A program made the position numbers and the translations under genes. Shown here piece after piece: positions 3,671 through 30,340 of a stretch of 64,000 nucleotides of DNA. The notes under the pieces are model-generated. The model worked only from the letters and a program-made list of their open reading frames with translations. It was not told the origin of the DNA and ran no database searches. The stretch's first letter is position 1. Each line of letters starts with the position of its first letter. The DNA is from Octopus sinensis (taxonomy: Eukaryota), in the NCBI RefSeq assembly GCF_006345805.1, contig NC_043002.1, positions 75,392,001 through 75,456,000 of the forward strand. The letters run 5' to 3'.

Positions 3671-4159
3671 ACCTTGTTTTTGATAAATGAAATTTTGAAT
3701 AAAGAATCTTGCAAACCAAATCCAAAAGCGAAATAGAATTTTGAATTTTAACATTAAATTGTTCCAGTCACGATTATAATAATTTAGCTGTATGTAATCT
3801 AGTGGTCCCTGTGATAAATCACTATTTTATTGTGGAATTGGTTTTATTAGCATGGTTGCATTATTGATCATTGAAATCAATGTCATATTCCATTTTGTTG
3901 TTGGTGTTGTTTTTCTAAGTTATTAATTTCTTATCTAGGTTTTCATTTATCTACAATTAGACTTTGAAGAGTAAGAAAATAAAACCCATTTACCTTCCCA
4001 CCACCATCTCGAACTGATTTTGAAGAAGACACTGCAAGTTAAGAGGTGTCATCTAAGCAGATAACGATAAATAAATTTGTGTGTGTGCGCGCACGCGTGT
4101 GTGTTGAATATTAGTTACATTAGATACTGCTATTTTCAATAATCATACAAGATATCTAG

Positions 4160-7816: not shown

Positions 7817-8128
7817 CTTTTATCTTTTACTTGTTTCAGTCACTTGACTGCCGCTATACTGGGGCACCACCTTGAAGGGTTTTAGTTAAACAAATCAACC
7901 CCAGGACTTTTTTTTTAAAGTGTAGTACTTATTCTATTTTTTTTTGGACTTGCCACTAAGTTACAGGTACAAAAACGCACCAACGCCTGCTGTCAAGGGG
8001 TGGTGGGGGAGAAGCATGCACACCCACACACAACAGCTTCTTTCAGTTTCCGTTTACCAAATCCACTCACAAGGCTTTGGTCAGCCTGAATCTATAGTAG
8101 AAGACACTTGCACAAGGTGCCCTGCAAT
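7817..8128 (-). mobile_element. SINE family A (5'-truncated)
   Basis: Tail ttttacttgtttcagtc... through agaagacacttgc. Confidence 0.8.
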
Positions 8129-8349
8129 GTTTCCATGATATGTACTATTGAGAAAGAGAGAATGTTATGTCCTCATATGGGCATCACAGCTTGAAGGTAG
8201 TGCAAGTGTGGAGTAAGATATCTAGATTTACTTGCATACACACACACATACACACTATGCATGATGTATTATACGTTCTCCTACTGCAATTCCATTTGTA
8301 AAGCATTGGTTAGAACTGAGGTCATACTAGAAGACACTTGCTTAAGCCA

Positions 8350-8538
8350 TTGACATTTACACTAGCCATATTGGACCATAATATTCTACCTGTTTTATGT
8401 TCAGACTGTAGAGTATGTGTGAGAGACTGGATCTGGTGAATGTCATTCTAAAAGTGAACAATCACATCATTGAAATCTCAGAGCTATGAGATAATGAATA
8501 ATTAATTCAATGCAATGTCAATAAATAATCATTACATC
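8350..8538 (-). mobile_element. Partial family P1 MITE
   Basis: aatattctacctgttttatgttc...attctaaaa...aattaattcaa matches P1 reversed. Confidence 0.6.
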
Positions 8539-9240
8539 ATCATCATTTAGTGTACATTGTCCATGCTGGTATGGGCTGATAGACTGAGGGGAATCACCAG
8601 ACTCCAGTCTGATTTAGCATGGTTTCTACAGCTGGGTGTCCTTCGTAATGCCAACTATTCCGAGAACGTAATGGGTGCTTTTATGCGCCATTGGCATGGG
8701 TGCCAGTTGTGTGACACCAGTATTTGTCACAACTATGATTTCACTTGACTTGATGGCTCTTCTTCCAAAGCACAGCATATTGCCAAGGATCTTGGTCATT
8801 TGTTATGGCTTCCATGAGGCCTAAAGCTCAAAAGGTGCTTTTTATGTGCCATTGGCACTGGTGCTAGTTATGTGACACCTGCATTGGCCACATTGTTTCC
8901 ATGAGGCCTAATGCTCAAAAGGTGCTTTTTATGTGCCATCGGCACAGATGCTAGTTACGTGACACCTGCATCGGCCACATTGCCTCCATGAGGCCAAATG
9001 CTCAAAAACTGCATCAGCCACATTGCCTCCATGAGGCCTAACGCTTAAAAGGTGCTTTTTATGTGCCATCGGCATGGGTGTTAGTTACGTGACACCTGCA
9101 TCGGCCACATTGCCTCCATGAGGCCTAATGCTCAAAAGGTACTTTTTATGGGCCACCAGTACGAGTGCCAATTACGTGACACTGACAATGGCCACAATTG
9201 TGATTTCACTTGGCTTGATGAGTCTTCTCAAGCATGACCT
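8535..9240 (-). mobile_element. Family B element with internally amplified segment
   Basis: (cat)n tail at 8535, family B body, then the 87-bp minisatellite. Confidence 0.75.
8812..9200. repeat. 87-bp minisatellite, ~4.5 units
   Basis: ccatgaggc recurs at 8812, 8899, 8986, 9029 and 9116 (periods 87, 87, 43, 87). Confidence 0.95.
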
Positions 9241-10565
9241 GAATGCTAGAAGGTTAAGGCGCCATACAATGAAACAGAACTCAAAACCAAATGATTATAA
9301 AACAAACTTCACATCCACACTGCCATATCTGTGCCTTTTATCAGGAATATGTAAAGCTGATGCACTTGTGCATACACATGTTTCTTGTGTTTTCCTTTTA
9401 TGGACTTGCCAGTTACATGTCAGATGATGCGTTAGTGGAGAAAGTTTATTGTACATTTATGAGTAGACGTGAATTCCTTGTCTCTTTAACTGGTCAATTC
9501 AGTTTCTGTTCCTACCATTCGTAACATTCTTATTTTTAAACATCATTAATTTTGCTATTCTGTCATGCTAAACTACTGCATAAAACATATTATTTCTGCA
9601 TCTTTACAGGAAAATTAATCATTGTTGATCTCTCATTATTTTCACTTTATTCTCACCACTTTTCTGGAGACAAAACAAAGAAAAGACAAAAAAAAAAAAA
9701 AAACAAATTTCATGTAATGGCTTTTATTGATAATTATTTAGTGACTCTGCAAGCAGGGAAACATCTTTTGCAGAGAGATTAGTAATTATGAAATCCCTAC
9801 TTTAGAAACAATTTTATTTTCATTAGCTGTAATTAATGACTTTTGATCTGGGGAGACAGTAAAATAATATGGTAGTCTTGGCATATGAAGAATGTCTTAT
9901 GTCTTAGGATTTTAAAAGTTATTTATATTGATATTTATCTTTTCTTGCTCTTCTGCTCAGTATTATATGCAGCTTCTGCTATTAATAAGTAATTTAGTAC
10001 AAAATCAGTTCATTTCGAAACGATCAGCCACTGTTCGTTAGTTATCTTCGCTAAAATGCTAAGAAATCATTTGGTTACATTATTAGCCTAATTAACATAA
10101 TTATAGCAAAGTAAAACTGGTTTATTACTTACAGGGATGAGATGAAGCTTCAGGCAAAATTCATATATTTTTAAAAGGTTCCAATGTTTTGTTTTTTGCA
10201 TCCAATCTTGGATAATGTAGTTGAGGTATTGAGCTATCCACCTTCAGTTAATGTAATTATTAGTACTGGCTTACATTTAATACTGCTTGACTTCTCAAAC
10301 AAAAACTAATTATTGTTTTACTCATTGTGGTAAACCGGGTTTTATTTATATTTTTTCTTTCCTCTCTTTAAGTGCAAGCATTCTTCCAAAGACTGTAAAC
10401 TGTAACAAAGAAAGACATACCTAGACACACTGATTAAATCATTTTAGTTTTAGTGGGCTTGCTTCCTCCTTACTAAGCCACTGTAATGCATGGTGTAAAC
10501 CATAGTATAAGTGAAATGTGTGTGTGTGTATGCATGTATATATATATATATATATGTATGTATAA

Positions 10566-10717
10566 AATATATCTTATTTTGGTTGAGTTGGTCTTTTGCT
10601 ACTCTGAGTTTCATCCGTGGGTGCACAGGATCTTCAGGCAAGCTATGGTTGCCATACCTTGCCTACAGGTGAAACTCAGTGTTGCAAGAGACCAACTCAA
10701 CCAAAATAAAATATATT
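10566..10717. repeat. 152-bp fold-back (head-to-head inverted pair), probably Penelope-like pLTR fragments
   Basis: Left arm aatatatcttattttggttgagttggtcttttgctactctgagtttcatc is the reverse complement of the right arm with few mismatches. Inner stem aggcaag-ctatgg/ccatac-cttgcct; 17-nt bulge at 10619-10635; lies between (TA)n tracts. Confidence 0.9.
10596..10641 (-). ncRNA. Minimal type I hammerhead ribozyme motif (Penelope-like-element type)
   Basis: Minus strand reads UUGC-CUGAAGA-UCC(U)GUG cacc CAC GGA-U-GAAA-CUC a GAG-UA-GCAA. This gives stem I UUGC/GCAA, core CUGAAGA, stem II, GAAA, near-palindromic stem III ACUC-A-GAGU and cleavage triplet GUA (cut between 10600 and 10599). One extra U precedes GAAA. 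Confidence 0.6.
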
Positions 10718-10819
10718 ATTAATCTCTACTATAGTACTGAGCACGCTTTTTCCCCCCCTAAACAGTCAACACAATCTCTCTCTCCCCCTCTATATATATA
10801 TGTGTGTATGTATATATAC

Positions 10820-10882
<63 letters not shown>

Positions 10883-11144
10883 ATATATATATATTGTTCT
10901 TTCTTCTTCTAATCAAGTTATTTATTTCAGCATGACTTCATATGAGTTTCAATATTAGATCTTTTTTTGCTCAGTAATTGTGAACTAGTGTAAACATGTA
11001 TATGCATACACCTACCTACTTATATATATATATATATGTGTGTGTATCCAATTGAAGTAACATGTACACACACATCTAAATATACATAAGCAAATATAAC
11101 CATATAAATTGTTGCCTGTGAAATGACTGTTTTTTAAATCAGTG

Positions 11145-11172
11145 TTTATTATTTTATATTTTGTAGGTAAGT
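11145..11172 (+). other. Candidate recursive splice site (TAG|GTAAGT)
   Basis: T-rich tract tttattattttatattttg, AG at 11165-11166 directly followed by GTAAGT at 11167-11172. Confidence 0.3.
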
Positions 11173-11261
11173 GTAAACAATTCTACTCTACTGTAAGGAG
11201 TTTTCTAAGAATGAGGTACAGTGCTTATTTTTCTTTTTTAATTGTCAATAGCAAACTCTTG

Positions 11262-11303
<42 letters not shown>

Positions 11304-11583
11304 GCAGTTTTGCCTGTAGTTGTAAACTCACTTTCTTCTTTCCTTTCCTTTCATTTTTGTAAATGTATCTTGTGTATTATTGAGGCTGTTGTTTCCCTGC
11401 TATTGTTCTTGTTTTTGTTTTGAAGCAGATTTTGTCTGATCAATAAAGCTTTAATGTATAAAATGTATGTATCCAGAGGCATCTAGCACATACCTTTTGA
11501 ACTTTCTAGAATTTTGCAATTATGGTTCTTGAAGCTGCAAATGTGTTGCTCTTATTCAATTATATATTGAGAATGTGTGTGTG

Positions 11584-11615
<32 letters not shown>

Positions 11616-11790
11616 TGCACATGTATGTGTGTGTATAATATATATATACATACATGTGCATATACTTGGAAAGAGGGCTCCTCTCTATAACCACATCTGC
11701 ATTCTCACACACACATATGTACACGAACACACATGTGCACGCTTGTACACACATGTAATTGGAATGTGTGTGTTTGTATGTATGTTTGTG

Positions 11791-11840
<50 letters not shown>

Positions 11841-12168
11841 AAATATAGGATTTGGCATATATGTTTTCCATGCATACTTTTGTATGTATCTAGACATGGT
11901 TGTGTGGTTAACATGGTGGCTTTGTAATCAAGAAGTCCCTGGTTGGGCAAATGACTTTTACCACAATACCTGGTTGTCCTCAAGCTTGTGATAGATGGAA
12001 ACTGTATGGAAGCATCAGAGAGGAACTATACTTGTAGCACAAAGTGCCAGCCTTGTCATTTTGTGTTATGCTGATGCTGCCTGAAAATTACATTCAGAAT
12101 ACAAATATTTGTGGAATACCCAGCGGTTTACACTATAATTCACTGAGTACATTGCTCAGCTGATTGTG

Positions 12169-12483
12169 TGGAGGCATGTGGCTAGGATATTTGTCTCATA
12201 ACCATAAGGTAGTGAGTTTGATTCCTGACTATAAGTGGTGTCCGTTTATTTTCACGTTGCTTCAGTTCACTCTGCTGGCAAAAAGGAGTTGTACCTGTAA
12301 TTCAATGGGCCAGCCTTATCATATTTGCTGTGACATGCTGAATCTCCTTGAGAGCTATATTGAAGGTGCACATGCCTGTGGAGTGCTTGGCTACTTGTAT
12401 ATTTGTTTCACGAGCAGGCTGTTCTGTTAATTGAATCAACCAGAACACTTGTCACCATAACTGATGACATGTCAGGAGTGAAC
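12169..12483 (+). mobile_element. Family D-related SINE
   Basis: ggaggcatgtggc head; body gggccagcctt...tgtggagtgct...ttcacgagcaggctgttc, which is also partly present at ~12030-12165. Confidence 0.6.
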
Positions 12484-13148
12484 ATCTGGTGCACACATTA
12501 TCAAAACTGACAGAGGATTCGTGTGTGGGTGTGTGAGTGAGCATATTTAAATATTTCTACATATAAATAGTAATTTCAAAGGTACATATCATAGTGGTTA
12601 AAACGTCCAGTTCATGACTATAAGACTACAGGTTCAATTCCTGGATTGTGCTGTGCATTGTGTTCTTGTGCAGGCATTTAGTTTCATCCTGCTCAGCTAC
12701 AATAATCACCAGCTGAGTGTTGGTACAGCCTGCTCTCCCTCTATGTTCTATTGAGTCAAGAATAAGGTAGCCTAAATGATGTCTATGTCTGCATGTGATT
12801 ATATGAACATCAAAACATCCATATTACCAAGGCATATTTGCTCATGGTATGATAATACAGTGTCGGTTCTTTGACTGGTATTTCTAGTGAACAACCATGT
12901 GAGAGCATTTGTTTAGGAAGATTAAGTTTTTTTATTGGCAGCAATATAGTGTAATGTTGGAAAAATACATATATGAAATAGGATAATGCAGATATAAAAT
13001 TTCCTGTCTGAAACATTAGATTTATCGTTTTATTGAATACCCATCTAAGAATTATTGTTCCAAAATTAGGTAAGAACATTTTTATTGAAAGCCATTTTTA
13101 TTTTTCTTAAGAGTTGAAGGAAAATGAGTATTTTTTTTTCATATATCG

Positions 13149-24795: not shown

Positions 24796-26040
24796 TATAA
24801 GGTCATCTCTTAAATAATATGGTTCTTTATGCTTCTTTTATTTTTCAAAATTAAGATAAACAAAGTTCTTTTTTTATCTAAAATTTACCCTCCTTCAATT
24901 TCTACAATGCTCTTTCATCTATGTGGTAGACTTGCAAGGCCCATCTTCCAAAATTCACTTGTCTGTGACAAAAAATACTCCTTCAGTACTGTTCTGACCT
25001 CATCTACAGAATTCATATTTTCCCTGTCTAAATGCTTTTGAAGACTGCAGAATAAATGATAATGAGATGGGGCAATATCTGGCAAATATAGTGGGTGAGG
25101 TATCGTTTACCATTCAAACTACTCCAGCCTTTGGAATGTCATCTTTACTATCTGTGGCTGAGCATTATCCTGATGGAAGAACGCCTTTCATCTTGAAACT
25201 AAAGATGGCCGTTTTTCTCCTTGTGCTGACTTCAGCCACCCAAGCTGCTCACAGTAGATCTCCTTTGTTTTCATTTGGTTTGGGTTTAAGAGTTCAAAGT
25301 GGACTAAACCTTTCATATCCCACCAAACAGATAACAGTACCTTATGTGGTGAAGACCTCCTTTAATCTGGGTACCAGTGTTTCTCCTATCCTTACCCACT
25401 GTCTTTGGTGCCTGACATTTTTATAGAGAACCCATTTCTTGTCACCAGTCACTATTTATAAAGGTTCATTCGTGAGATATGGCAACAAAGAAGAACACAC
25501 ATTCACTCTTTGCATGCAATTAGATTCAGAAAGTTTGTGGGGAAACTCATTGACCCAATTTTCTGACTTTTCCGATGACACACAGGTGTCGATGAATGAC
25601 CAAATTCAAGCTTCTCTGCTAGTTCCTCAACAGTTACAATGGGATTTTGTTCCACCAGGGTATGCAGGATTTCCTTCTCAAGCTCTACAGATTTTCCAAG
25701 ATGAGGCTCATCTTCTAGGCTGTAGTTTCTGGCTCGGAATTTCTGGAACCACCATTGAGACTGGCTTACACTTGTTGTCTGATCCCCATATACTGCATTA
25801 ATATTCCTCGCACTTTCTGTTGCATTGTTGCCTTTATTGAACTCATAAAGCAAAATATGCTGAATATGCTCCTTTGTCAATTCCATTATAGCCTGGAAAA
25901 AATAACTGTTAAAATCAAACTGACTCTTCAAAACTTGCTCTAAGAATAAGTACAAGGTAAAATTACTACTTGCTTATATACCAAGTTGATGCAGGTAGTT
26001 TATCCTATCCCCCTCCAACTTTTATGGGATGACCCAATAT
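24796..26040 (-). mobile_element. Full-length decayed mariner (D,D34D) transposon
   Basis: HTH N-terminus MELTKEHIQHILLYEFNKG...; motifs IVTGDKKWVLY, FHQDNAQP and YLPDIAPSHYHLF (34-residue spacing, third D changed to H); C-terminus EFWKMGLASLPHR*. Stops and frameshifts present. TIRs tataaggtcatctcttaaa / tattgggtcatcccataaa (15/19) in TA context; ~1.25 kb. Confidence 0.93.
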
Positions 26041-29159: not shown

Positions 29160-30340
29160 AAACACTCAACATGACCTGCATCATAAGCGATGCATTTGTG
29201 TCATTGGTAAACCAAACTCTTGAATCCTCTAAAAAAAAAAATTCAGGTGAACACTGTTGTATCCACTTCTTCAAAGCCACTTTAACATTGTCTGTCTCAT
29301 CAAATCTGGAAGGTACCAGATCAGTAGATGGGGGCCCATTAACCAGCCCAATGTGCCTGATTTGTTGTCCAAGGTGTGCAATGTCTGTTGTGGTGAATAT
29401 GGATCCTTTTCAGATCCTTATTTGGCATCTTCCTCTTAATAGCTTTCTCTAAGTTTTTCAAGTGTCTTAACCCTCTAACATTCATATTATTCTGTTAAAT
29501 GTGATGCATTTATTTAACACTGTTTTGAATTAATTGTGCATTATCCCAAAGCTTCAAGATTTTTATGATGGGATAGTTTATTTTTAGAATGACAATGTAG
29601 GGTAGATGTGAGGAACCAAATCTGGCCAGTTTGAATATAAAGCAGGTAGAATATTTTGGCTAGATATGAACGGATGAAATGCTAAGGGGGTAATGTGCAG
29701 CTCACTCATCACAGTACAGCCATGTTCTAGAAAATAAAGGAAAATAATACTCTTGTCATCCTGCCAAACAATTACAAGGACTTTTTGTGCTACTCTCTGC
29801 CTCTTGAACTTCTCAGACCCAAGAAAAGAGGTCAGCACCATTCTTATCATTCGATTGCCTAAATTATCCTTTGTAGATTATAAATATACACCCACATCTC
29901 ATCCACTGGTACTGGATTGGTAAAAATTTTTTTTTTAATGTGCCTTTATTGGCTTCAAATGCTTCCGGCTGATCAGAGCAGATTAACAACTTTCTTACAT
30001 TTAAATCAAGTGTCAACTGCTAAAATACCAACTTTGCATACACTTTCCTATGCCCAAAGTTTTCCACAATCTTTTGTATAGCATTGTGACCATAGTGCAG
30101 TTGTGCAGCAAGCTCATGAAATGTGACTTATCTATCTGCTTGAACCAATTCCATTCACTCACTGGTGATTTGTGTGCAGTTGATGCTCTTCAATGCCAGT
30201 TTCCTCTTTAGATTTCATTCATCTGTGCACATTTTCCTTGTCAATGGTGTCATCTCTGTAAACAACCTGTAACCTTTCGTGAATATCAGACAGCCTGCAC
30301 CTCTCCTTTGTCAAGAATTTTGGAACTTGTTATTTTCCCT
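29160..30340 (-). mobile_element. Decayed mariner transposase interrupted by a piggyBac-type MITE
   Basis: Minus-strand pieces: SDIHERLQVVYRDDTID (HTH), KVYAKLV, VDEMWVY, KFKRQRVAQKVLVIVWQDDKSIIFLYFLEHGCTV, DLVPS, VKVALKKWIQQCSPEFF, GFKSLVYQ*HKCI. TIRs not resolved. Confidence 0.8.
29467..29693 (+). mobile_element. Family P1 MITE nested in mariner
   Basis: TTAA-ccctctaacatt ... aatgctaagggggtaa; its removal restores the mariner frame ELHIKTLEKLR. Confidence 0.85.

Follow-up and report, generated by a model that had tools for sequence, protein, structure and literature searches.

Penelope-like elements (PLEs) provide the closest described systems for the repeat reported here. Craig et al. (2021, PMC8557442) define the Hydra clade, which belongs to the C-terminal EN+ PLEs, by a CxCX5C linker that precedes the C-terminal GIY-YIG domain, RWK and DKT in the RT, an EN without CCHH but with CxxC and CxH close to its end, insertion into (TA)n and canonical hammerheads; they also report, for PLEs, 5' copies that are inverted and a tail that is one-sided. 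By our own count of 25 published Hydra families, U stands on both sides of stem II in 14 and a stem III of the form ACUC-N-GAGU is found in five (PMC8557442). Minimal type I PLE hammerheads show low, dimer-only cleavage, and most occur as solo decayed motifs, with opposite-strand pairs 100-700 bp apart (Cervera and de la Pena, 2014, PMC4209133). The U10.1·U11.1 apposition has been recorded in natural hammerheads (Perreault et al., 2011, PMC3088659).

Head-to-head pseudo-LTRs (pLTRs), junction palindromes, microhomology deletions and, in one pLTR, a TATA box plus initiator were reported by Arkhipova et al. (2013, PMC3846280), and Schostak et al. (2008, PMC2377424) placed an intron and a promoter without a TATA box in the Drosophila pLTR. 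In the anole Poseidon element PAc, both strands are nicked and extended and two internal RT starts bound the tail; the PAc hammerhead is protein-assisted and was dispensable for insertion in vitro (Frangieh et al., 2024, PMC11167929). An inverted pLTR with a one-sided tail is described as a PLE footprint (PMC8557442, PMC3846280, PMC8969392). The one-sided PLE tail measures 30-40 bp in print. Definitions follow Goubert et al. (2022, PMC8969392) and a preprint on retrozymes (bioRxiv 10.64898/2026.07.22.740005).

The hairpin studied here lies at positions 10566-10717 of the window (the whole 64,000-nt stretch of Octopus sinensis DNA that was analysed) and very probably consists of two decayed pseudo-LTR (3'-end) copies, joined head-to-head, of a Penelope-like retrotransposon of the Hydra clade, likely derived from one insertion into (TA)n and likely neutral since. 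Arm alignment gave an inverted, tail-less arm carrying the hammerhead (10566-10651, minus strand) and a direct arm (10651-10717, plus strand), which is the same unit reversed, without 17 nt of the core and stem II and with a stem III change at 10680. The arms are identical at 59 of 67 aligned positions, with one 17-nt gap; both the inverted repeat and the exact 17 nt named as absent in a sequence-only reading were thus reproduced. All eight arm differences are one-sided and none is compensated. The left arm matched positions 4-88 (E 3e-23) of a family profile built from tail-bearing arms of other loci.

The right arm, also matched by the profile, goes on past 10717 as a one-sided family tail of about 57 nt (10718-10774, plus strand), homologous to the tails of two younger Hydra families (S and Y, below). 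The bounds first proposed for the element (10566-10717) were consequently right for the inverted repeat but too short on the right, where the element ends at about 10774. The left target flank is a (TG)n/(TA)n tract (10518-10565) and the right flank a (TC)n/(TA)n tract (10775-10895); a microsatellite also stands beside the tail in family loci. Folding of the hairpin gave z scores of -12.8 (minus strand) and -12.5 (plus strand), and none of 200 shuffles folded equally well. The predicted fold contains 59 arm-to-arm pairs and a 7-pair side hairpin, so that the long hairpin expected (~65 bp) was recovered, but not the simple 17-nt bulge in which the core had been placed.

A minimal type I hammerhead was delimited at 10596-10641 (minus strand) from the sequence, column tallies, stem status and the published Hydra hammerhead design. 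On this strand, stem I pairs UUGC (10641-10638) with GCAA (10599-10596), the core CUGAAGA occupies 10637-10631 and GAAA 10612-10609, and stem III is ACUC-A-GAGU (10609-10601), with the predicted cut between 10600 and 10599. In the family register, a U·U at 10630/10613 opens stem II, which is normal for the Hydra clade; it is followed in this copy by a C·A mismatch at 10629/10614 within the stem II-loop segment (10629-10614), and the predicted fold draws A9 into stem II. The claim that all type I elements stand in order was accordingly borne out for stem I, core, GAAA, stem III and cleavage site, but not for a clean stem II. The hammerhead differs from the family majority at 10616 and 10614 (stem II) and at 10595 (fifth stem I pair), and changes at the first two positions are shown in other copies too. 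The CUGANGA core, GAAA and NUH are all present on the minus strand of the left arm and likewise in the family majority, which also keeps all three stems, the conservation on which the ribozyme reading had been staked.

The detail agrees with Hydra-clade PLEs (Hydra-1_Ajap, Penelope-3_HM and Penelope-13_HM; PMC8557442) in a core ending in U, a U before GAA and an ACUC-N-GAGU stem III, which is the same ACUC-A-GAGU in Penelope-3_HM; for Penelope-13_HM an inverted 5'-truncated copy was noted, as in the studied family. As in metazoan PLE minimal hammerheads (PMC4209133), helix I is short, helix II longer and helix III palindromic, whereas the U·U replaces the extra nucleotide plus G10.1-C11.1 of those ribozymes. 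Both the family and the published Hydra elements support the assignment: a minimal type I hammerhead of the Penelope type, its stem III quasi-palindromic, in an inverted pseudo-LTR fragment. The search with covariance models that had been suggested as a check gave a different outcome: an Rfam scan of 8000-13000 returned no hammerhead family at E<=5, and generic hairpin models only, below their cut-offs. A relaxed hammerhead scan, which gave 0 matches in 30 shuffles, overlooked the studied copy because of the stem II mismatch.

The copy belongs to a dispersed repeat family of hundreds: a search of the same genome with the studied copy gave 295 first-look candidates (40 scored) and a second query 230. 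Fifty-six distinct loci were analysed, of which the two DNA searches supplied 48 and a pattern search 8. The family unit comprises the hammerhead and about 85 nt after the cut site. It starts about 12 nt ahead of the core, where an extended helix I has its 5' edge, and its last ~57 nt form a tail, carried by one arm only. A head-to-head, tail-less second arm was found in 37 of the 56 loci and a single arm in the other 19, counts of arm types that are not unbiased because the queries derive from the studied copy. The inverted arms end at a median profile position of 79 and none of the 37 reaches 129, whereas 47/56 long arms extend to position 129 or beyond; the median ends (79 versus 136) set the tail at about 57 nt, compared with 83 nt in family S. 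Of 49 loci, 41 have a microsatellite no more than 40 nt from the tail, versus 35 of 196 background windows (TA, CA and TG runs pooled).

The parent element was approached by walking upstream with a profile of 62 homologues, and Hydra-type ORF remnants were recovered in 2/14 loci (L360 and L364). In both, linker/GIY-YIG remnants are followed on one strand by a UTR and then the unit (i-E 9e-6 for L360; 3e-12 and 2e-4 for L364), with the tail after the unit in L364; L360 repeats the layout of the studied hairpin on a larger scale, with an inverted tail-less arm joined to a direct arm that starts in the linker and runs through the UTR into the unit. The two loci share the UTR (65% over 1052 nt, E 8e-55) and the ORF (73% over 66 nt). 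The CxCX5C linker spacing is intact in L360 and decayed in L364, both copies are heavily decayed, and the RT region of the family was recovered in neither. The predicted adjacency to Penelope RT/GIY-YIG ORFs was therefore confirmed for the GIY-YIG/linker part in these two of 14 loci, and not for the RT. A pyrimidine-rich upstream region is common to some copies. The unit itself is homologous (0-1 of 500 shuffles) to that of family S, a younger family that leads into a Hydra ORF, and the tails of families S and Y are homologous to the family tail (0-2 of 500 shuffles).

Pfam does not recognise the Hydra-type proteins here, and a Pfam GIY-YIG search for the parent found other PLE families, none of which carries this unit. 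ORF remnants beside two further loci (L272 and L274) were tried as the parent and rejected: none of 40 relatives of the L272 piece carries the unit or the UTR. The (TA)n target and the CxCX5C linker are those of Hydra-clade PLEs (PMC8557442), whereas the tail of about 57 nt, the UTR of over 1 kb and an ORF surviving only as fragments set the family apart from published Hydra families. Neither the stem III-cut-site motif nor the tail motif of the family was found in the part of the supplement of PMC8557442 that was covered. The repeat is very probably a new but ordinary family of the known Hydra clade, distinct and extinct, and dead at this locus.

Decay was assessed across the family. Across 92 arms, identity to the column majority is 85.6%; arms from the same locus agree at 76.3% and arms from different loci at 74.8%, and minority variants are shared at 1.73 within a locus versus 1.08 between loci (0/3000 permutations). 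Since same-locus arms share more minority variants yet are poorly alike, each insertion would have used one template, followed by independent decay. The hammerhead stems are paired in 80% of cells versus 30-46% when slid, and no covariation above shuffles was found in them (0.160 versus 0.172). At A/T positions, core changes (7.7%) were rarer than non-core changes (12.4%, p=0.001) over all columns, a difference that shrank (core 9.4%, p=0.26) on dropping three subfamily-variable columns chosen by the analyst; G/C positions showed no core versus non-core difference in conservation. The core is kept in 18 of 80 DNA-search arms, of which four also pass the stem test. Judged by these patterns, the family appears old and its copies bear no sign of selection. 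In several alignment columns where few copies keep CG, paired TG/CA variants were observed, which suggests CpG decay in a methylated genome.

The 17-nt deletion of the direct arm sits between two CCT words, leaving a CCT microhomology at 10662-10664 (plus strand). Its junction is private to this copy: a genome-wide pattern search (1 mismatch) found this locus and one unrelated site only. The gap is likely a later accident at this locus. Long palindromes tend to lose central sequence. Central losses were counted in 12 of 37 two-arm and 3 of 19 single-arm loci, counts that are biased by the queries and by local alignment.

Many PLE families, of the Hydra clade and others, populate the genome; they differ in age and in their hammerheads and have crisp ends. 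Family S (L163-L192, L233-L238; 1273 candidates, about 95% alike) has the same stem III as the studied family, and its ORF carries DKT, CxCX5C, CxxC and CxH marks, with an EN that lacks CCHH, a part of the protein that the remnants of the studied family do not preserve; DK[TS] is present in 57/62 homologues of the family S protein. In the hammerhead of family S, C takes the place of U4 in the core (CCGACGA) and stem II opens with an A-U pair. Family Y (L099:2140-2277, L118-L162; 1907 candidates, 99% alike) has the same U·U, and in 2/15 loci (L154, L156) clear remnants of a Hydra ORF precede it on the same strand; its stem II is 3 bp long and its UTR is microsatellite-rich and several kb in length. 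Inverted tail-less arms were found in 14/30 loci of family S and 8/30 of family Y, and some inverted family S pieces are joined through helix I homology.

Further PLE sequences were observed as follows. An abundant PLE (L091, L092) has RT plus GIY-YIG ORFs of 883 and 780 codons, and a hammerhead with a U3-A8 core swap and a CAUG stem III lies at L092:5163. A second PLE family at L093:4245-6569 has a 775-codon open frame, with a downstream hammerhead near 3736 (U·U, GUAC stem III). A young head-to-head pair (L103:3810-4245) is 94.6% alike with hammerheads on both strands, and the likeness of its arms breaks off just 5' of stem I, as if one RNA had been spliced and the other not, or the two had started at different points. 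At six loci (L321, L330, L334, L336, L341, L347), a Hydra ORF is followed by a hammerhead whose CCGAUGA core is flanked by A·A and whose stem III is of the CAGCUG type, and over 8000 candidates for Hydra-like ORF pieces were counted in the genome. A GTA(T/C)TGAG(T/C)AC-like motif occurs in the tails of the studied family (here at 10730-10745), S and Y, and also near the 3' end of the published Hydra-2_Amil consensus; it is a candidate RT recognition signal. Such families are good material on RT start and stop and on inverted-end formation, which the papers cited call unresolved.

For the studied hairpin, the preferred reading as a decayed head-to-head pair of pLTR copies would imply the following course. 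The RT/GIY-YIG protein of the element would have nicked AT-rich DNA, and reverse transcription would have begun on one template at two internal sites downstream of the hammerhead, giving the two tail ends. Both short cDNAs would have stopped near the 5' edge of helix I and then been joined, or self-primed, head-to-head. Later point changes and the CCT-microhomology deletion, as expected in a near-perfect palindrome, would have removed one core. The parent hammerhead would have worked only as a dimer or with protein help. PAc (PMC11167929) resembles this reading in its AT-rich targets and in a tail set by two RT starts downstream of the hammerhead in AC-rich sequence. Its RT starts lie 111-118 nt inside the ORF and its cut at +26; in the studied family, the end of the tail falls about 85 nt past the cut. 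PAc belongs to a different clade, and the studied family has no ATG in the core.

The position at which the arms stop was considered separately. Upstream sequence (the UTR) is absent from 47 of the 48 DNA-search loci, and the starts of 63 of 93 arms fall within 7 nt of a single position, figures obtained with queries that themselves began at the helix I edge. A TATA-like box stands at -27 to -33 in 13 of 19 long copies, which, being homologous, amount to one observation; family Y has TATAAA at -29 and family S a weak box only, at about -36. With the same reservation about queries, 24/30 copies of family S have their start between -6 and +8 relative to the helix edge; two of 18 incidental family S arms start further upstream than -1. 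For the 5' ends of family Y, a search of the same genome gave no candidates, and the one incidental family Y copy among the loci at hand extends upstream.

These ends allow a tentative, somewhat doubtful proposal, namely that the short Hydra hammerhead cassettes would be RT run-off products at the RNA 5' end and not random 5' truncations: the RNA would start at the first helix I base, ~30 nt after a TATA box, the RT would initiate at the tail sites, and the cDNAs would be joined head-to-head. If this is true, the start sites of PLEs and of their RT can be mapped from thousands of fossil 5'-RACE products in the genome. A fold-back at helix I that sets the boundary would also explain the ends, and fold-back through helix I is visible in L035, L163, L167 and L176. 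So would a 3' splice site in this place, where pyrimidines precede CAG, although no shared 5' exon was seen before the short copies. Searches of the open-access literature listed no report of run-off at a PLE start site, nor of PLE hammerheads silenced by an antisense arm.

The same missing UTR and clustered starts would suit a different origin, in which a Hydra RT copied the short unit or the palindrome in trans as an independent, non-autonomous element (SINE-like or retrozyme-like). Non-autonomous PLE derivatives have been described (PMC8557442; bioRxiv 10.64898/2026.07.22.740005), and non-LTR retrozymes are likewise non-coding, carry a type I hammerhead and come from PLE pseudo-LTRs (bioRxiv 10.64898/2026.07.22.740005; see also PMC7229834). 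However, retrozymes form head-to-tail tandem units (bioRxiv 10.64898/2026.07.22.740005), whereas the studied family is solo or head-to-head: no head-to-tail same-family pair within 1.5 kb was found in the 56 loci, among which the one same-strand pair is a family S copy. Palindrome centres vary between loci, 19 of which are one-armed, longer copies with graded 5' ends exist, and the ORF-tied family S gives the same short forms. Independent propagation of the unit is accordingly improbable.

A role for the host, in which the copy would have been kept for its self-silenced ribozyme or for dsRNA on which ADAR or Dicer acts, is more improbable still. It draws on a very stable hairpin on both strands, a surviving core that is intact, and arms that are more alike (86%) than the family average (76 +/- 5%). 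The prediction that a transcript would be locked in the long hairpin also stood up: the hammerhead fold is predicted to lie 31 kcal/mol above the ensemble inside the repeat, in energies that ignore non-canonical core contacts and are meaningful as comparisons only. By the same measure, though, the left arm alone is disfavoured by 9.5 kcal/mol, compared with 5.6 to 18.1 in five other natural copies, and the hammerhead bears three stem changes. The 59-pair antisense arm offers no switch, and the uncompensated, one-sided arm differences also speak against maintenance. In this family, an intact core often faces a broken one (exactly one intact in 18/37 two-arm loci, two intact in 0/37).

A designed device is not supported, because the head-to-head arm is the standard insertion footprint, found in younger families of the same genome as well. 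The proposals of a selected self-silencing device, a consequential ADAR/Dicer substrate or an element that propagates itself were thus not upheld, given this standard footprint, the private deletion and decay without covariation. On the preferred pLTR-pair reading, a read-through RNA of the studied copy would form a long hairpin that blocks the hammerhead as a by-product. The locus itself is one dead copy among hundreds and of little weight; as a caution, hairpins of a hammerhead and its antisense arm are a routine PLE footprint and will recur in such genomes. A MITE or fold-back DNA transposon, or a microRNA precursor, with an incidental hammerhead is the least credible origin, since the terminal-looking inverted arms in a TA tract and a 65-bit score with the Rfam MIR6135 model (below its cut-off of 99, and following hairpin shape) are outweighed by an asymmetric tail, variable ends, the single-arm loci, long copies that lead to a PLE ORF and an exact core plus stems I and III pattern present at 13 sites genome-wide versus 0 for the reversed control, target duplication being unreadable in the microsatellite flanks.

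Sequencing runs and the surroundings of the locus were also inspected. Three runs guessed to be RNA and one other yielded only pieces of paralogous copies, none across the hairpin, and the deepest run was also bare at the hairpin centre. For a host gene, Pfam was applied to 210 of the 478 stop-free frames of at least 50 aa (the remainder were dropped as low-complexity), a search in which short exons would be missed, and only mariner transposase pieces were returned. Broken mariner-type transposase pieces lie at 25191-25973 and 29587-29877 (minus strand).
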